From contig CAZJVP010000057.1 in assembly GCA_964549615.1 (NCBI GenBank), forward strand, positions 1 through 57,116: a stretch of 57,116 bases of DNA, given 5' to 3'. A program made the translations under genes and the position numbers. The DNA comes from an uncultured Thermococci archaeon. Lineage in GTDB: Archaea; CAYQAE01; CAYVLA01. The notes beneath the pieces were generated by a model, which saw nothing but the letters and a program-made list of their open reading frames with translations, did no database searches and was not told the origin of the DNA. This document shows, one piece after another, positions 24,296-34,116 of the stretch (positions within the stretch are counted from its first letter, which is position 1; each line of letters starts with the position of its first letter).

Positions 24296-25624
24296 GTGAA
24301 AAAGGCTGCCCTGCCGCTGGTGGGCTTGATCGTTGGCACAAGCGGCGTAGCAGGCCACTCGGCCGTGAGGGCAGGAGCCGCGAAGGTCGACATAACCCCC
24401 GATTCCCGAGTCTTCATAGCGGGCTATGGCCAGAACCGCATCTGCACGGGCGTCCACGATCCCATCTGGGCCCGCTGCATCGTCCTTGAGATCGCGGGCT
24501 CAAGGATCGCCTTTCTATCCCTTGACCTGATAGGGCTGTTCTGGGACGATGTGGAGGTTATCCGCAAGGGGGCGGCGTCCCCCTCCTTGCCCGCGGAGAA
24601 CATAATCATCTCATGTACCCACAACCACGAGGGGCCCGATACGCTGGGCCTTTGGGGGCCTGAGATCGGCAGATCGGGGGTGGACAGCAGGTACAAGCTC
24701 CTCGTGAGGGAGAAGGCAGTTGAGTGCGTGAAAGAGGCCGAATCGAAGATCGTTCCGGCCCAACTGCGGGTGGGCCAGACAAGGGTTGAGGGCGTGTCGC
24801 GTAACGCGAGGGACAAGGATATACTGGATCCCGTCCTTGTTGCGCTGAAGGCAGAGGACGATCAGGGCAGGTGTATAGCGACCCTGGTGAACTTCGCCAA
24901 CCATCCCGAGGCCCTGGGCTCAAGGAACACCCTGATCTCTGCCGACTGGCCCCACTACCTCTACGCCACCGTTGAAGAAGCGCTGGGCGGAATCTGCATC
25001 CTCCAGAATGGCGCGTTGGGCGGCATGGTGACCCCGGATGTCTCGTCCCACACCTTTGAGGAGGCCGAGCGAATCGGCGCCACGACGGGGCTCAGGGCCG
25101 TGGAATGCCTCCAGGGCAGCCCCGTCATGCCGTGCGAGAACCTCACACACCTCAGCGCAACCCTAGACATCCCCGTGGCCAACAAGAACTTCCTCGCCCT
25201 GCGCAAAGCCGGGGTCATCACGCGAACCTTCCATCACGGCAAGGTTCGTACCGAGCTCCACGTCATAAGGTTCGGCGACGTCGAGATGGCCACCATCCCG
25301 GGCGAGGCCCTTCCCAAGGTCGGACTTGCAATCAAGAGCTACATGACTGCGAGATACAAGATCCTCATCGGCCTCGGGAACGATGAGCTTGGGTACATAA
25401 TACCTGAGGAGGATTTCGATCCAACGAAATACGAGGAGTCCATGTCCGTCGGGCCCAAGATAGCACCCGCGATCGAAGCCAAGCTCAAGGCCCTGCTCAC
25501 GGGTCACGGAACGGGAAGCCCTCGGGCTGGCCCGCTCACCCTTGCCCTGCTCCTCATGCTCTTCGGCGGGGGCGCATGTGGCGTTATCTGGGGTCTCCGT
25601 CGTCGCAGGGACTCGGCTGTCTAG
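24296..25624 (+). CDS. Neutral/alkaline ceramidase-like hydrolase, secreted and C-terminally anchored
   Basis: RAGAAKVDITP, GVHDPIWAR, SCTHNHEGPD, NFANHPE, ISADWP, IPGE, GLGNDELGYI; signal peptide and C-terminal TM plus RRRR. Confidence 0.8.
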   Translation: MKKAALPLVGLIVGTSGVAGHSAVRAGAAKVDITPDSRVFIAGYGQNRICTGVHDPIWARCIVLEIAGSRIAFLSLDLIGLFWDDVEVIRKGAASPSLPAENIIISCTHNHEGPDTLGLWGPEIGRSGVDSRYKLLVREKAVECVKEAESKIVPAQLRVGQTRVEGVSRNARDKDILDPVLVALKAEDDQGRCIATLVNFANHPEALGSRNTLISADWPHYLYATVEEALGGICILQNGALGGMVTPDVSSHTFEEAERIGATTGLRAVECLQGSPVMPCENLTHLSATLDIPVANKNFLALRKAGVITRTFHHGKVRTELHVIRFGDVEMATIPGEALPKVGLAIKSYMTARYKILIGLGNDELGYIIPEEDFDPTKYEESMSVGPKIAPAIEAKLKALLTGHGTGSPRAGPLTLALLLMLFGGGACGVIWGLRRRRDSAV

Positions 25625-25767
25625 AGCCCGCTCACCGGCTGTAGCTTGTCCATCACGGCGCCGGGTCGCGAAGAACGCGGAACGGGAAGCTGTACGGATG
25701 GCCAGGCTTCGCCAAAAAAACGAAGGCCGAGCGCAAGATATTTGCACGCCCCCGGAAAGTCCAAGAC

Positions 25768-26880
25768 GTGGCCCAAGAGGCATACTCGCAGCTTGCAAGC
25801 TACATAGCCCTTTCGGCCCCCGCCACCCGCAGGCCGGCTCGGCCAAAGGAGCCCTTCCTGCGGCCGGAGATCGGCTTCGTGCCCGCATGGTTCCAGCAGA
25901 GGCTCGGCATAGACTTCGGCAAGCGATGGCACACCGACCCTCGCTATAGGTGCGAGACCATCGTTACGATGTCGAAGGAAACGAGGCGGCGATTCGGCGC
26001 CCGCTCTGACATCGGGATCATGCAGGACCCCGAGCGTCCTCGCGACATACTCACCGGCACTTACGGCACCGTTTTCGTCGCTGGCATCTACGGGGCTCCG
26101 ATAGAATACCCGAGCAACGGTTGGCCCTCGGTGAAGCCCGGATGGTTCTTGACCGATCAGCAAGCCGATGAGCTGGAACCTCCGGAGCTCGATAGCAACC
26201 CGGTGTGGAACGAACTCATGGACCAGCTGGACTGGATTGAAAGGGAGCGCGGCCGCATCGAGGGGTTCCTGAACTGGCAAGGCGTCTTGAACAACGCCTT
26301 CAGGCTGAGGGGCAACAGGATCTTCTTGGACATGGCAAGGGCCCCGCAAAGGGTTGAACATGTCTTCGAGTGCGTGACCGAAACGATGATCGAAGGAGCC
26401 AGGCGGCTCTACGAACGCCAGAGGAGAACCGGGGTGCGGATCGACCACTTCACCATCAGCAACTGCTTGGTGAACATGACCTCGCCCGCGCAATACGCCC
26501 GGTTCCAGTTGCCCTTCGATCGCAGGATCGCCCGATCCTTCGGGATGATCGGGATACACAACTGCGCCTGGTCGGCCGACCCCTACATCGACTTGTATGC
26601 CACGCTCCCCAAGGTCGCATACATCGATATGGGCGTCGAATCGGATCTTCCCAGGGCAAAGAAGGCTTTTCCGGAAGCGCGCCGGGCGATCATGTACCCA
26701 CCCCAGGCGATCAGGAACCGACCGCTACCGGCGATCGAACAAGACCTAGAGCGGATCGCGGAGCGGTACGGCCCATGCGACATCGTCTTCGCCGACATCA
26801 CGCACGATACGCCGGATGAGCGCATCCTCGCGCTGATCGACATCTGCCAGCGCATCAGCGAGAAGCATGCTTGCGCCTGA
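25768..26880 (+). CDS. Uroporphyrinogen decarboxylase (UroD/MtaA-CmuA) fold protein
   Basis: GVLNNAFRLRG..IFLDM...P, SPAQYARFQLPFD, GIHNC motifs. Confidence 0.7.
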   Translation: MAQEAYSQLASYIALSAPATRRPARPKEPFLRPEIGFVPAWFQQRLGIDFGKRWHTDPRYRCETIVTMSKETRRRFGARSDIGIMQDPERPRDILTGTYGTVFVAGIYGAPIEYPSNGWPSVKPGWFLTDQQADELEPPELDSNPVWNELMDQLDWIERERGRIEGFLNWQGVLNNAFRLRGNRIFLDMARAPQRVEHVFECVTETMIEGARRLYERQRRTGVRIDHFTISNCLVNMTSPAQYARFQLPFDRRIARSFGMIGIHNCAWSADPYIDLYATLPKVAYIDMGVESDLPRAKKAFPEARRAIMYPPQAIRNRPLPAIEQDLERIAERYGPCDIVFADITHDTPDERILALIDICQRISEKHACA

Positions 26881-26894
26881 GGCTTTACCGAAGA

Positions 26895-27845
26895 CTACCT
26901 CTCGGTCACGACATCCGCTATGTCGAAGATGTGGTCCGCCGCATGCTCCACGCACGACCAGATCTTGGCAGTATCTGGCTCCTGTGCGGACTCTTCCCTG
27001 AGCTCCGATATCATGCGCACGATGCTTTGACGGTTTCTCGTCACCATGTTCGACAACTTGAAGTCTCCCTTGAGCAACGCGTTGGTCGCCTGCTGGTAGA
27101 GCCTCTTCATCTCCGCCGCCAGGTCGATGGCCTTCTCGGCAATCACGACGTTCGTCGCCTTTTCGAGGTAGTGCGAGCACATGTCAACCGACTCGTCTCC
27201 CACCTTCTCCATCATGCTCGCAGCGAACCGCAGGTCCAAACACTGCGACGGCAGTACGCCGACGCTCTCGGCCGTCCTCAGGTCGCTGACCGCAGTCCTC
27301 AGCAGGCGTATGGCGAGGAAGTAGAGCCTGTCAAGGGCATCGTCCCTTTCGATCACGTTTTGGGCTAGCACTCTGTTCCCCCGCGCCAACGCGCAGATCG
27401 CGTCCTCCAGCATCGAGCTGCCTATCTGGTGAAGCCTCCTCATGACCTCCTCCACGGAGAGCTCCATGGGGACCACTAAGCTGACGAGCAGAAGGCTGTC
27501 CGAGGTCTCGTTTATGACCTCCATCCCCGCCAAGCGCGTCGCAGCCGTCCTTATTGTCTCCTTCTCGGTCGACGTAATCATCTTCTTGGACTTGATCAGT
27601 ATCCTGTCGTAACCGGAGAGGTAGCTGGCCGTTAGCTCCCTCCCGATATCCTCGGTCAGCTCCAGCTCGGTCGCCCTCGCCCTCGGCTTGGCCATGGGAT
27701 TGGCCTCTATCATTAGCGTTGAAGCTCCGAGCCTAGCAAGTCCCACCTGGCTTCCCTTCGTAAGTCCATTCTCAGCCACCCAATCCTTCGGAAGCGATAT
27801 CAGGTAGCTGCCTCCGGACGTCTCCTGAAGATACCGGGTTTCCAT
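26895..27845 (-). CDS. phoU: Archaeal phosphate uptake regulator (AbrB-like N-terminus plus two PhoU domains)
   Basis: RYLQETSGGSYLISLPKDW, ASYLSGYD, VIERDDALDRLYFL, EKVGD, EHAADHIFDIAD; the ORF-track start at 28067 is over-extended. Confidence 0.88.
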   Translation of the reverse strand: METRYLQETSGGSYLISLPKDWVAENGLTKGSQVGLARLGASTLMIEANPMAKPRARATELELTEDIGRELTASYLSGYDRILIKSKKMITSTEKETIRTAATRLAGMEVINETSDSLLLVSLVVPMELSVEEVMRRLHQIGSSMLEDAICALARGNRVLAQNVIERDDALDRLYFLAIRLLRTAVSDLRTAESVGVLPSQCLDLRFAASMMEKVGDESVDMCSHYLEKATNVVIAEKAIDLAAEMKRLYQQATNALLKGDFKLSNMVTRNRQSIVRMISELREESAQEPDTAKIWSCVEHAADHIFDIADVVTER

Positions 27846-28030
27846 GAGATGTTCATATCCAAACATACATATTTGAATATTTCGCCGGAAAAAAAGAAAA
27901 GCCGCTCCCTGTTCGAATAGGCGTGGCCGACTGGGAGAAGCCGCGCCCATTTCACCGCAAGCTCGACTGCCCTGGCGATCCCAAACCGCGTCTCGCGGCT
28001 GGGAGATCGTGATTGCTCCGAGGTGTAGAA

Positions 28031-29803
28031 ATGGCCAACGTCTCCACCCTCGAAGTTCCAGTTGCACCCGCCACCGAAGGAGCCAAACAATCTCACGAAC
28101 ATATGGTTAGAATAGAAAATCTCAATTACACCTACCCTCGAAGCGATAGCCCGGCCCTCCGCGACGTGAACCTTGATATCCATGAAGGAGACGTCGTGCT
28201 CATAACCGGTCCGAGCGGGGCCGGAAAGACAACGCTCCTCAGGCTCATAAACGGTCTCATACCCCATTTCTTCGGGGGCACTTTCAAAGGGTCCGTTGTC
28301 GTCAAAGGATACGACACCAAAAGCCGCGACCCAGGCTTCTTTTCCACCTTCGTCGGTTACCTTTTCCAGAACCCTTCGGCCCATCTGATAGCACCAACCG
28401 TGAAGGAAGAGCTGGCATTCGGTCCCGAGAACCTCGGCGTGCCAGCACACGAGATCCTTGCCAGGATCGAGCGCACTTTGAAAGAGATGGGACTTGAGGG
28501 ATGTGAGGGCAGGAACCCGCACTTCCTTTCTGGAGGGGAGCAACAGGCCGTGGCGCTGGCATCCGTTGTCGTAATGGAACCCAGAATCCTAGTGCTCGAC
28601 GAGCCGACATCAAACCTCGATCCTCTCGGCACCGAACGGGTGATGGCACAGATTCAGAGGCTCGCAAGAGATGGCCGCAGAACGATCTTGATCGTTGAAC
28701 ATAAGTTGGAGGAAACGGCGCACCTGGCGGACAGACTGATCGTCTTGGACGACGGAGCTGTGTTGCTGGATGCACGGCCGAAGGACGCCTTGAACCAAGC
28801 TGAAGAACTGCTCGGTCACGGCGTCAGGATTCCGCAGGTGACGTTGCTCTTCCATCACCTCGTCAGGAAGAGGCTTGTCAACCTCGAGAGCCTTCCGCTA
28901 ACCGTTGAGGAGGCCTATGAACTCTTGGCCGGAAAGCCAAGACGCGCGCCCAGAAAGCCACGCACCGAAGCTACCCAAGGTGGAAAGGAGATCGCCAGGG
29001 CCGTCGACCTCAGCTTCACCTACCCAGATGGCACCGAAGCGCTTAGCGACGTAAACCTCACGATTCGAGAGGGGGAGTTCGTAGGGCTGATAGGTCAGAA
29101 TGCTTCCGGCAAGACGACCTTGGCGAGGCTTTTCAACGGCCTACTTAAGCCCACCAAGGGCAAGGTCTACGTTGACGGAGAGGATACCTCCGAGCACAGC
29201 ACGGCATACCTTGCCACAAAAGTTGGCTACGTCTTCCAGAACCCCGATAGCCAGCTCTTTTGCAGGACCGTCGAGGAAGAGCTGACCTACGGGCCGAGGA
29301 ACCTAAAGTTGGACAGGAAGGTCGTTGCGGAAAGGGTGAGAGAGGTCTCTGAAGCCATCGGCATAACCCACCTTCTCAGGAAAAACCCATTCCAGCTCAG
29401 CCAAGCGGAGAAGCAAAAGGTGGCGGTGGGCTCGGTCTTGACAATGAGGCCCAAGATCCTCATAGTCGACGAGCCCACAACCGGCCAGGACCATTTGTCA
29501 AGCCTCAGGATGATGGAGTTTTACCGCAAGCTGAACAGCCAGGGCGCGACCCTGGTCGTCATAACCCATGACATGAATCTTGCTGCCCAGTACGCCAGCA
29601 GGATCGTAGTGATGCAAAGCGGAAGGATTATCGCTGAAGGGCCGGCGAGGACGGTTTTCGCAAGATCCCAGATCCTGAGGGAGGCCCATCTCAAGCCCCC
29701 ACAGGTTTCGGAGCTTTTTAACCGAGTCTTCAACGGTACTGTGGACTGGACGGTACTTACGGTCGAGGAGGCTTTGGAGGCCTTTGAGGAGGCGCTAGCC
29801 TGA
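28031..29803 (+). CDS. ECF transporter ATPase with two fused ABC domains (EcfAA')
   Basis: GPSGAGKT/LSGGEQQ/LDEPTSNLD and GQNASGKT/LSQAEKQK/VDEPTTGQD; ATG after GAGGTG. Confidence 0.93.
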   Translation: MANVSTLEVPVAPATEGAKQSHEHMVRIENLNYTYPRSDSPALRDVNLDIHEGDVVLITGPSGAGKTTLLRLINGLIPHFFGGTFKGSVVVKGYDTKSRDPGFFSTFVGYLFQNPSAHLIAPTVKEELAFGPENLGVPAHEILARIERTLKEMGLEGCEGRNPHFLSGGEQQAVALASVVVMEPRILVLDEPTSNLDPLGTERVMAQIQRLARDGRRTILIVEHKLEETAHLADRLIVLDDGAVLLDARPKDALNQAEELLGHGVRIPQVTLLFHHLVRKRLVNLESLPLTVEEAYELLAGKPRRAPRKPRTEATQGGKEIARAVDLSFTYPDGTEALSDVNLTIREGEFVGLIGQNASGKTTLARLFNGLLKPTKGKVYVDGEDTSEHSTAYLATKVGYVFQNPDSQLFCRTVEEELTYGPRNLKLDRKVVAERVREVSEAIGITHLLRKNPFQLSQAEKQKVAVGSVLTMRPKILIVDEPTTGQDHLSSLRMMEFYRKLNSQGATLVVITHDMNLAAQYASRIVVMQSGRIIAEGPARTVFARSQILREAHLKPPQVSELFNRVFNGTVDWTVLTVEEALEAFEEALA

Positions 29804-29812
29804 AAGACAGGG

Positions 29813-29938
29813 GTGACCCCGGTGCAATGGCTGCCACTTAAGCCACCATGGAGTTGGCTCGCCGTAGCGGTCATCGTCGTGCTAACGATCTTGGTGGTCT
29901 ACTATGGCAACTCCAGGTGGAGAGGAAGCGGGAAATAG
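29813..29938 (+). CDS. 41-aa single-TM micro-protein inside the ECF operon
   Basis: Own translation from GTG: MTPVQWLPLKPPWSWLAVAVIVVLTILVVYYGNSRWRGSGK*; fills the gap between the ATPase and EcfT. Confidence 0.55.
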   Translation: MTPVQWLPLKPPWSWLAVAVIVVLTILVVYYGNSRWRGSGK

Positions 29939-29955
29939 CGCAGGATGGGCCAAGA

Positions 29956-30792
29956 ATGGCGTTTGAATATTTCGAGGGCGATTCCCTCCTTCACAGGCTA
30001 GATCCAAGAGTCAAGATCGTACTCTACCTCACGTTCACGCTCTTCGCCATCGTCTACTCAGATCCGATCGTGTTGGGCGTCGTCTACCTGTTAGCGTTGG
30101 GGACCATAAAGGCGGCTGGAATACCCCTGAGGAAGATGGCGCCCGCACTCAAGGCGATTCTTCCGTTCCTAGTCGTCTACCCGCTCTTCAACATCTTTGG
30201 CTATAGGGGCGGGTTCGGGATGCAGTACTCGCTGGGGAGATTTCTTTTCTGGAACATATACCTCGAGGCACTGGTCTACAGCATCGGGGTGGAGCTGAAG
30301 GTTCTCATCATCGTAACCGTCCTCAACGTCGTGCTCTACGTTACCCCCATAAGTCGTCTGGTAGGCTCCCTCGCCAAGTGGAGGATGCCAGCTGATTTCA
30401 TCGTCGCTCTTTCGATAGGGTTTAGCTATGTACCAGTTCTGATGAACGAGGTGAGGGAGACCCTGAACGCGCAAGAGGCGAGAGGGTTTAGCCACAGGTC
30501 AAGAAACCCGGTGAGGCTTCTGCTCAACTACATCCCCGTGATCATGCCATCGTTCATGAGCGCCTTCAGAAGAGCCCAGGACATAGCCCTGAGCATCGAG
30601 ACTAGGGGATTCGGCTACAGCCTCGGCAAGAGAACCTCGATAACCCAAACGAAATTCGGTCGCGACGACTGGCCAGTCATGGCCACGCTTCTCGCTGCGA
30701 TCGGAGTCGCCCTCGTCACCGGACAATGGGGGCTCGACCTGGGTGACTTCAGGTTCAGCTTGAACTTCTTCAGGATCTTGCTGCGCATGTAG
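29956..30792 (+). CDS. ecfT: ECF transporter transmembrane component T
   Basis: SLLHRLDPRVK; AQEARG and IETRGF coupling motifs. Confidence 0.92.
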   Translation: MAFEYFEGDSLLHRLDPRVKIVLYLTFTLFAIVYSDPIVLGVVYLLALGTIKAAGIPLRKMAPALKAILPFLVVYPLFNIFGYRGGFGMQYSLGRFLFWNIYLEALVYSIGVELKVLIIVTVLNVVLYVTPISRLVGSLAKWRMPADFIVALSIGFSYVPVLMNEVRETLNAQEARGFSHRSRNPVRLLLNYIPVIMPSFMSAFRRAQDIALSIETRGFGYSLGKRTSITQTKFGRDDWPVMATLLAAIGVALVTGQWGLDLGDFRFSLNFFRILLRM

Positions 30793-30818
30793 GGAGTCGC
30801 AATGGGAGGAATCGTGCC

Positions 30819-31481
30819 GTGGAACAGAGAAGGAGACTCATAACATCTAGGCAGGTGGGCTTGGCCGCCGCTCTGGGAGGCCTTGCCTTTGCGTGGAGGG
30901 CCCTCGGCCTAAACATACCCTGGGTCCCGCCTTTCGTCGTCGACCTAGGCCATACCATAGTGCTCCTCGGGTCTTTTGCCGGAGGACCTTATGTCACAGC
31001 TGCAATTGCGATCCTGATAGGGATACCCTCGTGGGATACCTGGATAGACATGCTCGGCTACTTCATCACAGGGCTCGGGTTGTGTTTCCTCGCGAAGACG
31101 ATCTGGAAGCATAGAAACAGCTTCGGCGGCCACCTTCTCATATGGCTCTACTCAGCAACTGCATCCTACATAGTGGCCCCTGCGTACTGGTTACTGATGT
31201 TCGACAACGTTCTCCACCTCATACCATTCAAAGCCACCCTCTTGGTCGTCTGGTCCCCAGCCGGCGACGCCCTCCCGTACACCCTGCTCAAAGCCATACC
31301 TCTGAGCATTGCCCTCGTATCAGCGCCCCACTATATGGAGCCAAGATGGAAATGGAGAGGCGGAGAGCAGGTGGTTTCGGAGGAAAGCAGGGTCGGATGG
31401 AGCAAGCAGGATGTGTTGGGGATTGCCCTTTACCTACTCATGATACTGGCGGCAGTGGGCGTGATTCTGATCAAATGGTAA
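30819..31481 (+). CDS. ECF transporter substrate-specific S component (substrate unknown)
   Basis: ITSRQVGLAAALGGL N-terminal AxxxA-type motif, SFAGGP, about 6 TM plus an extra C-terminal TM; directly follows ecfT. Confidence 0.75.
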   Translation: MEQRRRLITSRQVGLAAALGGLAFAWRALGLNIPWVPPFVVDLGHTIVLLGSFAGGPYVTAAIAILIGIPSWDTWIDMLGYFITGLGLCFLAKTIWKHRNSFGGHLLIWLYSATASYIVAPAYWLLMFDNVLHLIPFKATLLVVWSPAGDALPYTLLKAIPLSIALVSAPHYMEPRWKWRGGEQVVSEESRVGWSKQDVLGIALYLLMILAAVGVILIKW

Positions 31482-31502
31482 GACGCCCGGCTCTTAGCGC
31501 CG

Positions 31503-31605
31503 ACACCTCCACGCTGGATGGCACCGCCGAACCACCTTTCAACACCGGAAAGGTCGGCCCAAGCCTGATCTGTGGGCTGTGTCCATCCATAGACTCGCTA
31601 GGTGT
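31503..31605 (+). ncRNA. Candidate structured cis-element (multi-stem junction) between the S component and pantothenate kinase
   Basis: Nested pairings: ACACCT/AGGTGT, TGGATGG/CCATCCA, ACCTTTC/GAAAGGT, GCCCA/TGGGC. Confidence 0.3.
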
Positions 31606-31740
31606 GCTTGAGAAGAAGGTTCCCGGCTTTCTTGGACGCAGGGACGTTCACTGCCTCCAGTTCGCTTGCCTTTCCGGGGCAGCCTTTTCGGAGCTCTCCT
31701 GGGGAAGAGATAAATCCTGTGGCAACAACGAGGAGGTCGA

Positions 31741-32559
31741 ATGATCGTAGGGATAGACATCGGAGGAAGCACCACGAAGGCGGTTGCCTATCGCAACGGG
31801 ATGGTCGGGAAGACCTCCGTCACAACGACCGACCCCTATGCAGCGGCCGCAGGTGCACTGGCGAAACTCTTCATCGATATCGGTAAAGGCCTGAGCGATG
31901 TCCAACGTATAGCTGTTACTGGAGGAGGATCCCGCGCCATGGCACCCGACCTCCTCGGCCTTCCCGTGTGCAAGGTGGACGAGATGCGGGCCATCGGACT
32001 CGGGGGAATCGAGCTGACGGGAAAGAAGCAAGCTCTCGTGGTCAGCATGGGCACGGGGACGGCGATCCTCGCCGTCAGGGACGGAGGAAGACGGGTACAG
32101 CATGTCGCAGGTACCGCTGTCGGAGGCGGTACTTTGATGGGCCTTGCAAGATGCATTCTCAACAAGTACGAGATAGGCAGCCTCTGGAAGCTGGCCAAGG
32201 ACGGAGATCTCAGGAAGGTTGACCTATCCGTCAAGGATATCGCTGGCGGGTCGGTGGGATTCCTTCCTGAGAATGCGACCGCGTCCAACTTCGGGAAGGT
32301 CACGGATGACGCCTCGGAGGCCGATTTCGCGCTCGGCGTCATCAACATGGTCGGACAAGTGATCGGAACCATTGCGTGCCTGGCCGCAAAGGCAAATGGC
32401 CTCGAGCAGGACGTTGTCCTGGTCGGCAAGGTTGCTGCGAACAAGGAGATCACCGACGTCATGCAGGGCGTGGGGGCGCTCTACGGAGTCAAGATGGTGG
32501 TTCCGCGGGACCCGGACTTCTGCACGGCCCTTGGCGCGGCCATGGCCGTCCTTAAGTAG
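31741..32559 (+). CDS. coaW: Type II pantothenate kinase (Fumble/CoaW-like, ASKHA fold)
   Basis: GIDIGGSTTK, AVTGGG, VDEM, VSMGTGT, GTAVGGGTLMGL, GD...VDLSVKDI, TASNFGK, ALGA; GAGGAGGT SD. Confidence 0.85.
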   Translation: MIVGIDIGGSTTKAVAYRNGMVGKTSVTTTDPYAAAAGALAKLFIDIGKGLSDVQRIAVTGGGSRAMAPDLLGLPVCKVDEMRAIGLGGIELTGKKQALVVSMGTGTAILAVRDGGRRVQHVAGTAVGGGTLMGLARCILNKYEIGSLWKLAKDGDLRKVDLSVKDIAGGSVGFLPENATASNFGKVTDDASEADFALGVINMVGQVIGTIACLAAKANGLEQDVVLVGKVAANKEITDVMQGVGALYGVKMVVPRDPDFCTALGAAMAVLK

Positions 32560-32651
32560 ATCGCTCGCTGGGCACCAGAGATTCGCAGTCACCGGTCGCC
32601 AGCACCAAACAGCCAAATAGCCTTTTATTTTGGCTGCAGTCACCGGGTCAT

Positions 32652-33599
32652 GTGGCGGGCCTGGATCTGCTTGTCGTGGGCGACGCAATGGTGGACCTGA
32701 CGGTGAAGCCACCTCCGAGCCGCAAGGGAGGCGCCTATCCATCCACGATCGTTGTTTCGCCGGGCGGCCTAGGCAATGTTGCGGCTGCCGCGGCTGATTG
32801 CGGGGCGCGGGTGGGCTTCGCCGGCAGGGTTGGAAAGGATGTCCTTGGCGAGATGTACATCCGGGACTTGCGCTCGAACGGCGTCCGCAGCTTCGTGCGC
32901 AGATCCCACCTTCCCACCGGGATCTGCATCAACTTCATCCACCCGGGCGGCGAGCGGACCATGTACACGACCCGCGGGGCAAACGACCTGCTCGTCTCGC
33001 GGGACGTCCCCGACTCCCTACTTCGCCTGACCAGAATGGTCTTCGTGTCGGGTTTCTCTATGGAGACTGCCAAATCTGCGACGGAGATCGAGAAGGTATG
33101 CAATAGGGCAAAGGCCCGGGGCAGCCAGGTAGCGGTCGGAGGAGGGGCGTTCAACATAATAACGAGGAGGCGGGAACGCTTCCGTCGAATGATATCCAGC
33201 AATGCTGACATTCTCGTGCTCAATCAAAAGGAGGCCCTCGCCCTCAGTGGCAAGACCGCTGTGAGGCCTGCACTGGACGCACTGCAAGCCCTCGTTGGGT
33301 TCCTCGTTGTCACTCTAGGTCGGCGTGGTAGCATACTTTGCCGCAATGGTTCTGTGACCCGCATTCCTGCTCCTCGGTCACCGGGAAGGGCCATTGATAC
33401 GACGGGCGCCGGGGACGTTTTCGCGGGGACCCTTCTTGCGGGGCTTCTCCTAGGGAAGGGCGCCATCGAAAGCATAAGGCAGGCCCATATCCGGGCGGGC
33501 AAGAGCGTCGCCCACCTGGGGCCCAGGCCGCCCCGATGGCCGTCGGAACGCAGCATCAGACCCGTTTGCCCGCCAAACAGCACAACATGGCCGTTTTGA
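32652..33599 (+). CDS. PfkB/ribokinase-family carbohydrate kinase
   Basis: VVGDAMVD, PGG..NVA, GRVGKD..G, GERTM, LNQKEA, VTLGRRG, DTTGAGDVFAG. Confidence 0.92.
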   Translation: MAGLDLLVVGDAMVDLTVKPPPSRKGGAYPSTIVVSPGGLGNVAAAAADCGARVGFAGRVGKDVLGEMYIRDLRSNGVRSFVRRSHLPTGICINFIHPGGERTMYTTRGANDLLVSRDVPDSLLRLTRMVFVSGFSMETAKSATEIEKVCNRAKARGSQVAVGGGAFNIITRRRERFRRMISSNADILVLNQKEALALSGKTAVRPALDALQALVGFLVVTLGRRGSILCRNGSVTRIPAPRSPGRAIDTTGAGDVFAGTLLAGLLLGKGAIESIRQAHIRAGKSVAHLGPRPPRWPSERSIRPVCPPNSTTWPF

Positions 33600-33792
33600 A
33601 AAGAATTGCGAGCTCTCTCGGCGTGGAAGTGTTGATCACAAGGCGCTCCAGCATTGGGGCCCCTGCGCTCCAGGCCCCCAGGAATTCCTTGCAAGAAACC
33701 AGGACCGGTCAGAAGGATTTGAAAGCAGTGATTAGCCGAAACAAGGCAGAAAACAACACCCTTTTCTTACTCTAACAGCCACCCAATTCCTA

Positions 33793-34116
33793 TTGAAGCG
33801 GGTTGAGATCCGTCAGAAACGCATAGTGATAAGCGACATAAGGGACATGGAAGAGAGGGCTGCGTCCCCGGCCTTGGTGAAGGCGCTGGCGTCTCGCGTT
33901 CAGAGGGTGCTGAGGGAGCTGGGCCTCACCGCAATTGTTAGGGTCGGAAGGAATCCTGATATTCCGCACAGAAGGCCACGCAAAGCCCGGCATGGAGGCC
34001 AATTCTCAGCCAAGGCGCGCGTAGCCGCGCCACTCTCCCGGCCGACACAAGCCTCCGACACGGTCCTAAGACCCAGACCCGCCATGAGAACTGGGGCGGA
34101 GGAGACACGCCAATGA
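33793..34116 (+). CDS. Hypothetical basic protein
   Basis: 107-aa ORF overlapping the next gene (ATGA); Arg-rich, no motif. Confidence 0.35.
   Translation: MKRVEIRQKRIVISDIRDMEERAASPALVKALASRVQRVLRELGLTAIVRVGRNPDIPHRRPRKARHGGQFSAKARVAAPLSRPTQASDTVLRPRPAMRTGAEETRQ

Follow-up and report, generated by a model that had tools for sequence, protein, structure and literature searches.

A Transporter-Kinase Locus as a Candidate Entry Point for Pantetheine into Coenzyme A Synthesis in an Uncultured Archaeon

Introduction

How does an archaeon obtain coenzyme A (CoA) if it carries a kinase resembling type II pantothenate kinases (PanK) beside an energy-coupling factor (ECF) transporter and lacks the enzymes that would process phosphorylated pantothenate? 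This question is raised by a gene cluster on contig CAZJVP010000057.1 (assembly GCA_964549615.1) of an uncultured Thermococci archaeon, of which the whole stretch analyzed, 57,116 nucleotides long, is called the window here. A preliminary description of this DNA had claimed a co-oriented run of ecfAA′, a micro-ORF, ecfT, an S component gene and a type II PanK gene, and had suggested a non-canonical, bacterial-style CoA salvage system for pantothenate or pantetheine. The run was confirmed as a series of plus-strand open reading frames (ORFs) at positions 28013–33599, including a downstream PfkB gene.

We propose, with a probability of roughly one half, that the locus is the entry of a three-step pantetheine shunt with the ECF module as importer. 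Pantetheine or its disulfide would be imported, and pantothenate would be neither made nor usable. An ECF transporter built of EcfAA′, EcfT, S and a small membrane peptide would be the importer, standing in place of an oligopeptide transporter (OPT) found in sister genomes. The type-II-PanK-like kinase would convert pantetheine to 4′-phosphopantetheine, and an archaeal phosphopantetheine adenylyltransferase (PPAT) and a GTP-dependent dephospho-CoA kinase (DPCK), both encoded elsewhere in the genome, would complete CoA. A divergent PhoU/AbrB-type regulator probably controls the unit.

Results

CoA Pathway Genes in the Genome

The window belongs to a 3.2 Mb genome (G000; 99.46% complete) of an uncultured organism, for which the best DNA match was a hot-spring metagenome. 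It was compared with three sister genomes of the same family (G001–G003) and with the next relative (G004). The archaeal character suggested in the preliminary description was supported by archaeal-type PPAT, DPCK, nicotinamide-mononucleotide adenylyltransferase (NMNAT) and AfpA, and two sister contigs are labelled Candidatus Hadarchaeota archaeon.

Phosphopantothenate synthetase (PPS; PF02006), which the preliminary description had named as a gene to check, was absent from G000 in a whole-genome family search. For the route from pantoate to 4′-phosphopantothenate, PF02006, PanB (PF02548) and PanC (PF02569) were thus all absent from G000, while pantoate kinase (PoK) itself was not searched; PanB, PanC and type III PanK were each found in none of the five genomes G000–G004. 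The DFP/CoaB domain (PF04127) was absent from G000–G003, and the same search did find CoaB in G004 and in all 14 control genomes. The two genes of the PF02441 flavoprotein family in G000 were shown to be UbiX and the archaeoflavoprotein AfpA, not CoaC. The genome keeps an archaeal PPAT (NF001985, 159 bits, over cut-off) and a GTP-type DPCK (PF04019).

Since phosphopantothenoylcysteine synthetase (PPCS) and phosphopantothenoylcysteine decarboxylase (PPCDC) are both missing, 4′-phosphopantothenate would be a dead end. Pantothenate could then not be a useful substrate, and pantetheine (or its disulfide) would be the sole input linking the kinase to PPAT. Pantetheine is reported to be accepted by PanKs of types I and II, not by those of type III (PMC12406275). 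The gene pattern of a pantetheine shunt was found in G000, that is, no PPCS or PPCDC, a PanK of type II and not of type III, a PPAT and a DPCK, and from this gene content it appears very likely that such a shunt operates. Of the salvage system suggested earlier, the non-canonical part therefore stood, with PPS absent and a type-II-PanK-like kinase relied on, but the bacterial-style route through pantothenate did not, since CoaB and CoaC are absent as well. PfkB was also considered as a stand-in DPCK and was dropped, as the archaeal DPCK family is present.

The Kinase

The kinase gene (31741–32559) gave the single PF03630 match in G000. Its product scored 94.9 bits with this Fumble model (cut-off 28.5), and it matched the type II PanK model NF009842 along its whole length. 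Residues 1–264 of the Staphylococcus aureus type II PanK aligned to positions 1–269 of the kinase profile (E 5.6e-30). The motifs GIDIGGSTTK, VSMGTGT and TASNFGK were present in the translation as previously described; the earlier designation as a complete type II PanK is thus upheld by full-length homology and motifs, but the NCBI equivalog score was not reached. The closest homologues cited were P0009 (88%) and P0010 (80%).

In the profile alignment, the family-invariant residues E81, A108 and H121 occupy the positions of E70, S102 and R113 of the S. aureus enzyme. From the RV-G-x3-GGG motif, we take S. aureus R113 to be the equivalent of R207 in human PanK3. Pantothenate contacts reported for human PanK3 are E138, S195, R207 and two backbone groups contributed by the second protomer (PMC8366970). 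If R113 equals R207, the Arg that pairs with the carboxylate of pantothenate has been lost from this clade, a change that would fit pantetheine, which is free of that carboxylate. A search of open-access papers and bioRxiv for S. aureus Arg113 found no literature. From sequence and pathway context, the protein is proposed to be a pantetheine kinase.

Kinase and CoaB across Archaea and Bacteria

The kinase family was followed through species-representative genomes, where 574 loci were confirmed; 80 of the 574 were kept, and the 25 archaeal loci among them were examined. In a separate 61-genome archaeal sample, CoaB was absent from 6 of 7 kinase-bearing genomes versus 19 of the 54 without the kinase (35/54 have CoaB). 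Twenty-three further archaeal genomes with PanK-II showed no CoaB (0/23), no PPS (0/23) and, with one exception, a DPCK (22/23). Overall, CoaB was absent from 29/30 archaeal kinase-bearing genomes, and PPAT scored over cut-off in 27 of the 29 that lack CoaB. Among bacterial controls carrying the same kinase family, CoaB was present in 18/25 genomes, so that its absence in archaea is not an artefact of the quality of metagenome-assembled genomes (MAGs).

Some single genomes may be recorded here. One genome of the 61-genome sample (G048) contains CoaB together with a weaker PanK-II match (60 bits). The seven bacterial kinase genomes without CoaB (G092, G094, G098, G100, G103, G105, and G106) come from Clostridia, Clostridiaceae, Oscillospiraceae, Candidatus Pseudoruminococcus, Bacteroidales, Bacteroidota and Binatia, and are consistent with a bacterial pantetheine shunt. 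In genomes of Aenigmarchaeota type, the DUF359/DPCK match lies in frames of 343–351 amino acids (aa; usual length 166–199 aa) that may be fusions with another domain (G063:C2:1097157, G068:C18:4133, G070:C111:1177, and G082:C7:4823).

PoK and PPS are reported as missing in Korarchaeota, Bathyarchaeota, Thermoplasmatales and nano-sized lineages, with no replacement stated in the relevant part of that report (PMC6650551). Our comparisons suggest that archaeal lineages without PoK and PPS salvage pantetheine instead of making 4′-phosphopantetheine.

Organization of the Locus

The features of the locus are as follows.

26895..27845, minus strand: regulator with a PhoU domain and an AbrB/MazE-like domain (PF01895, 56 bits; PF04014, 24 bits)
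28031..29803, plus strand: fused EcfA-EcfA′ ATPase (TIGR04520, 474 bits; TIGR04521, 470 bits)
29813..29938, plus strand: micro-ORF, 41 aa, putative single-helix membrane peptide (ORF list)
29956..30792, plus strand: EcfT (PF02361, 103.7 bits; ORF open from 29848)
30819..31481, plus strand: S component, 220 aa (fold model, Foldseek, RibU profile match)
31482..31740, no strand: S-to-PanK spacer, 260 bp (sequence)
31741..32559, plus strand: type-II-PanK-like ASKHA kinase, 272 aa (PF03630, 94.9 bits; NF009842, 213.6 bits)
32652..33599, plus strand: PfkB-family kinase (PF00294, 157 bits)

The EcfAA′ ORF (596 aa) is open from 28013, with a probable ATG at 28031, the start already given in the preliminary description. 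The regulator ORF extends to 28067 with a probable start at 27845; sister proteins begin at a METRY motif.

Exchange of OPT for the ECF Cassette

The gene order in G001–G003 was a ceramidase-like gene, a uroporphyrinogen decarboxylase (URO-D)-like gene, the regulator (minus strand), OPT, PanK and PfkB (all plus strand), a small ORF and a ligase gene. The OPT gene of the sisters, encoding 570–640 aa and matching PF03169 with 132–146 bits as two partial stretches, is co-oriented with PanK, ends 16–47 bp 5′ of it and occupies the exact position of the ECF cassette in G000. It is the only OPT gene in each sister genome. No OPT was found in G000 by family search and tblastn, and a search of the 260-bp spacer and the regulator-EcfA spacer for an OPT remnant gave nothing above noise. 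DNA similarity of G000 to its sisters resumes at the PanK start codon.

The GC content of the ECF genes (0.55–0.57; EcfAA′ 0.566) was lower than that of the genome (0.599) and also lower than that of the flanks. Given the loss of OPT from the slot and the low GC content, the ECF cassette has replaced OPT in place, probably after transfer. Repeats flanking the cassette that would point to insertion of a mobile element were not found; the direct repeats present correspond to the two homologous ATPase halves. Short contigs from a second hot-spring study, 90–95% identical, span parts of EcfA, EcfT, the T/S junction, S and PfkB, so that a related strain elsewhere carries the cassette. An importing role of the ECF module is plausible because the cassette fills the OPT slot and G000 has lost OPT.

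Importer Genes beside Archaeal PanK-II

The pairing of an importer with the kinase was shown to be the rule in archaea. A transporter gene, either OPT or S-component-like, adjoins the kinase in 24/25 archaeal PanK-II loci, L019 being the sole exception. A co-oriented OPT gene was located at most 2 kb 5′ of PanK in eight of the 25 loci (labels Hadarchaeota, Aenigmarchaeota, Thermococci and unclassified archaea), and in the 61-genome sample OPT was present in 5/7 kinase genomes versus 2/54 others. In 16 of the 25 loci (L011, L012, L014–L017, L021, L026, L033, L047, L051, L055, L057, L062, L065, and L066), an S-component-like membrane protein of 176–337 aa adjoins PanK, on both sides in L047 and L055. 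These proteins form one BLAST-linked family with the labels Bathyarchaeia, Thermoproteota (including isolate Kor1), Crenarchaeota, Thaumarchaeota, Nitrososphaerota and uncultured archaeon. Bacterial kinase loci mostly had no membrane-protein neighbour.

Eight of ten scanned members of this PanK-adjacent family matched Pfam models of ECF S components, four of them over the gathering cut-off, and the 17 best Foldseek matches of its model (pLDDT 88) in the PDB were all S components; its sequence profile (A4) had no match among PDB sequences. Homology between this family and the S component of the window was also considered and rejected (hhalign probability 2%, hmmsearch E >0.01), and the two were kept separate. 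The PanK-linked family has no member in G000, and the sole other PF12822-like gene of G000 is found in the OPT-bearing sisters too.

The regulator, which is divergent from the transporter-kinase unit and syntenic in G001–G003, has a homologue located divergently 5′ of the transporter-PanK pair in six further archaeal loci (L026, L033, L047, L051, L062, and L065; about 0.7–1 kb 5′ of PanK). This arrangement recurs in archaea of distant lineages irrespective of the transporter type that occupies the slot. The protein may regulate the uptake of CoA precursors, and transporter and kinase genes may be co-regulated under it. When RNA evidence of co-transcription was sought for the locus, no matching RNA data set was listed.

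The ECF Module

The ORF for EcfAA′ contains two ABC ATPase domains, matched as two stretches by each model (TIGR04520, 474.1 bits, cut-off 315; TIGR04521, 470 bits, cut-off 330). EcfT belongs to the CbiQ/EcfT family (PF02361, cut-off 25) and scored 89.9 bits with the cobalt-specific equivalog TIGR02454, below its cut-off of 111.8. Together with the six-helix fold of the S component and its ties to A and T genes of its own, these two EcfA-type ATPase domains and the T protein make up an ECF transporter.

Alignments with EcfT homologues begin at residue 37, corresponding to position 29956, and the micro-ORF therefore sits in the spacer between AA′ and T. An overlap of the micro-ORF with EcfT was accordingly not retained, the most likely EcfT start being 29956. 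In the seven closest S-family loci (L099, L100, L102, L103, L104, L153, and L156), ORFs of 39–50 aa end 2–14 bp 5′ of the S gene; they have the hydrophobic core in common with the micro-ORF and carry a YY-basic tail, with weak pairwise E-values (0.03–0.12). The constant position suggests a real small membrane partner in spite of these weak values. In this ECF subfamily the micro-ORF product is probably an additional small subunit, and the peptide of about 40 aa may be a fifth ECF subunit.

The S component matched PF12822 weakly (17.1 bits, cut-off 30.7; E 0.006) and matched no NCBIfam model. Its homologues are few, with seven among 5.8 billion clusters and 38 among 1.84 billion representatives; the closest one cited was P0002 (74%). 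An AlphaFold model built on 36 relatives (pLDDT 96.1, pTM 0.91) showed six core helices and an extra C-terminal helix. The top 15 Foldseek matches in the PDB were all ECF S components (RibU, ThiT, PanT, FolT, and BioY), with TM-scores by target length of 0.39–0.64 and E-values of 0.045–0.4, PanT standing at ranks 5 and 12. When a profile of the S family was compared with PDB sequences, the sole match was RibU 3p5n (E 3.5e-8) and the PanT chains were unmatched. With PF12822 below cut-off and RibU as the only PDB sequence match, membership in the PanT family, against which the protein was to be compared according to the preliminary description, was not borne out. Judged by the modelled fold, the 220-aa protein is an ECF S component of an unnamed family, not PanT, and the fold is silent on the substrate.

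A RibU-like riboflavin cargo was also considered; it would be conceivable, but nothing favoured it. Matches to lumazine synthase and riboflavin synthase were present in 5/5 genomes, and the creatininase-family protein encoded beside S homologues is not ArfB (43 bits with the ArfB model, cut-off 180).

Flanking Genes

PfkB lies 3′ of PanK in all four genomes of the family (gap about 70–95 bp) and not beyond it. Its best NCBIfam match was ribokinase (98.6 bits, cut-off 299.7), and no NCBIfam equivalog was reached. An ATP-dependent DNA ligase gene is located downstream of PfkB. On the other side, at 24296–26880, lie two genes that are syntenic with the regulator in the sisters. One encodes a neutral-ceramidase-like protein that carries a membrane anchor at its C-terminus, the other a protein distantly similar to URO-D. 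An Rfam scan of 27500–33800 gave no match in the spacer and one chance-level sRNA match inside PfkB.

Discussion

Is the ECF Module the Importer?

Several observations speak against the ECF module as pantetheine importer, beginning with the S family itself. A metagenome scan with the closer alignment set (A3) yielded 65 S-family loci, of which 51 contained a homologue of the fused EcfAA′ and 49 an EcfT, the remainder being mostly short contigs. The S family thus behaves as a self-contained cassette, and PanK, OPT and PfkB were each found in 0/65 loci. Conservation of the S-PanK linkage, which the preliminary description had made a test of its idea, was consequently refuted, the S gene also being absent from all three sister genomes. 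The recurrent neighbours of S were instead a creatininase-family hydrolase (32 loci) and a class-III aminotransferase (17 loci), followed by proline-racemase-family (7), threonine-synthase-like (6) and C45 hydrolase (5) genes. An M20 deacylase of the ArgE/DapE type adjoins S in 15 loci, those of the closest homologues included. These neighbours suggest another cargo, a small amide or amino-acid derivative. One genome (G083) carries an OPT-PanK pair plus a separate S-AA′-T cassette. The S-to-PanK gap in the window is 260 bp as compared with 16–47 bp between OPT and PanK in the sisters, so that PanK may have its own promoter, and the lower GC content of the cassette fits a recent transfer with no necessary functional tie to the landing site. 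For the kinase, the scores fell below the NCBIfam equivalog cut-offs (NF009842, 213.6 vs. 234 bits; TIGR00555, 108 vs. 247.6 bits). As to the counts across archaea, genomes that are related to each other do not count as independent samples, and no completeness figures accompany the 23 genomes reached via loci.

The metagenome islands deserve a remark of their own. In L105–L151 and others, the creatininase-family hydrolase gene stands directly 3′ of S (32/65), often together with genes for an aminotransferase resembling glutamate-1-semialdehyde (GSA) aminomutase, a proline-racemase-family protein, a threonine-synthase-like protein and a C45 hydrolase. Such a region has the look of a catabolic island, as yet uncharacterised, that would act on a small amino compound of cyclic or N-acyl type.

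These findings could be accommodated by an explanation in which the shunt is real and the ECF cassette is an unrelated, transferred importer of a small amide or amino-acid derivative that landed between the regulator and PanK by chance; OPT would have been deleted, and pantetheine or a later CoA precursor would enter otherwise. The missing PanK and the amidohydrolase and amino-acid-enzyme genes in the S-family loci, the separate cassette in G083, the low GC content and the 260-bp spacer all speak for it. However, the window would then be, besides L019, the sole one of the 25 archaeal PanK-II loci without an adjacent importer, and G000 would have neither an OPT nor a PanK-linked S-like protein anywhere, though it is unable to make the precursor. 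An in-place replacement that left both flanking genes intact would also have been hard to survive if the sole importer was deleted. We regard this explanation as the main rival, if somewhat unlikely. For the ECF module as pantetheine importer the odds are about even, because the in-place swap is hard to explain otherwise, yet the associations of the S family point elsewhere.

In another explanation the kinase is not a CoA enzyme and phosphorylates some other imported compound, perhaps together with PfkB, while CoA or dephospho-CoA is taken up ready-made. The sub-threshold equivalog scores of the kinase, the change at two of three same-protomer pantothenate-contact positions and the conservation of PfkB 3′ of PanK in 4/4 genomes would agree with this. 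Nevertheless, it appears improbable, since the kinase co-occurs with PPAT (27/29) and DPCK (22/23), which would lack an input if it were not there, and is nearly exclusive with CoaB in archaea, and the PfkB linkage is confined to the family. Import of pantothenate by the S component, with the kinase feeding a route through PanK, CoaBC, PPAT and DPCK as in one version of the preliminary description, appears most improbable. In its favour, full-length homology links the kinase to type II pantothenate kinases, and pantothenate-specific ECF S components do exist (the PanT structures; PanU, PMC11487621). Against it, G000–G003 have no CoaB domain where G004 and all controls have one, CoaC is missing, and the S component neither reaches the PF12822 cut-off nor lies closest to PanT.

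Possible Pantetheine Dependence in Archaea

If the pantetheine shunt with its kinase-adjacent importers is extended beyond this locus, large parts of Archaea would be obligate pantetheine auxotrophs with a dedicated His-for-Arg kinase and a three-enzyme CoA route, and OPT, the solitary S-like family and the ECF cassette with its peptide of about 40 aa would be three unrelated but interchangeable types of pantetheine importer in the slot next to the kinase. The lineages concerned would be the Hadarchaeota-labelled family, Bathyarchaeia, a Korarchaeia-type MAG, Aenigmarchaeota and several MAGs labelled Thermoproteota and Thermococci. We put this wider picture forward, lineages and interchangeable importers jointly, as a tentative one with slightly less than even chances. 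The kinase-adjacent genes are concrete, testable candidates for pantetheine importers and, if the proposal is true, the first prokaryotic candidates for dedicated pantetheine uptake. This has implications for how communities in hot springs and sediments cross-feed, for the resistance of such archaea to cultivation and for the specificity of ECF and OPT transporters. A search of open-access papers and bioRxiv found nothing on archaeal type II PanK, archaeal pantetheine salvage or OPT and ECF genes beside such a kinase.

Comparison with Known Systems

A pantetheine shunt was proposed for bacteria without CoaBC from gut genomes, with the importers described there as unknown and known vitamin B5 transporters reported in just 12% of predicted pantetheine auxotrophs of that 2019 gut survey (PMC6593275). 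The Apn variant described in this survey (Rodionov et al., 2019; PMC6593275) resembles the genome of the window in that CoaBC and de novo pantothenate synthesis are missing, PanK, PPAT and DPCK are kept, and dependence on pantetheine is predicted. Unlike these bacteria from the human gut, the host of the window is an archaeon with an archaeal PPAT, a GTP-type DPCK and a kinase of a distinct type-II-like clade that is paired with importer genes.

The S. aureus type II PanK, CoaW (PDB 2ews and 4m7x), shares full-length homology, the ASKHA phosphate motifs and the Glu at E70 with the kinase of the window. It differs by an identity of only about 25–30%, by the invariant His at R113 and the invariant Ala at S102, and by the score below the equivalog cut-off.

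Before the work on yeast Opt1, mechanisms of pantetheine uptake were called unresolved (PMC12406275). Opt1, a member of the OPT family, imports pantetheine and 4′-phosphopantetheine as glutathione disulfides (Wedman et al., 2025; PMC12406275); it is described as apparently without orthologues outside yeast, the prokaryotic analysis in that report covering bacteria only (PMC12406275). The OPT gene joined with the kinase gene in an operon in the sister genomes is comparable to Opt1 in belonging to PF03169, and Opt1 supplies precursors that bypass the PanK, PPCS and PPCDC steps (PMC12406275). In contrast to Opt1, the archaeal OPTs are distant members of PF03169, with 132–146 bits in two partial stretches, and in the window OPT is replaced by ECF.

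In Bacillus subtilis, cysteinopantetheine is reported to be imported by TcyJKLMN, and PanU is the pantothenate S component (PMC11487621). TcyJKLMN parallels the proposal for the window in being prokaryotic and in supplying PanK-dependent salvage with a pantetheine-type disulfide, although this cystine ABC transporter depends on a binding protein, was recruited by mutation and is not a dedicated neighbour of the kinase (PMC11487621). The ECF transporter PanT (PDB 4rfs and 6zg3) and PanU (PMC11487621) show the same A, A′, T and S architecture, the same S fold and the same CoA-precursor context as the window. The S component of the window lies outside those sequence families, and its transporter is set apart by a dedicated cassette with fused AA′, by the extra C-terminal helix of S, by the peptide of about 40 aa and by a cargo that would likely be pantetheine.

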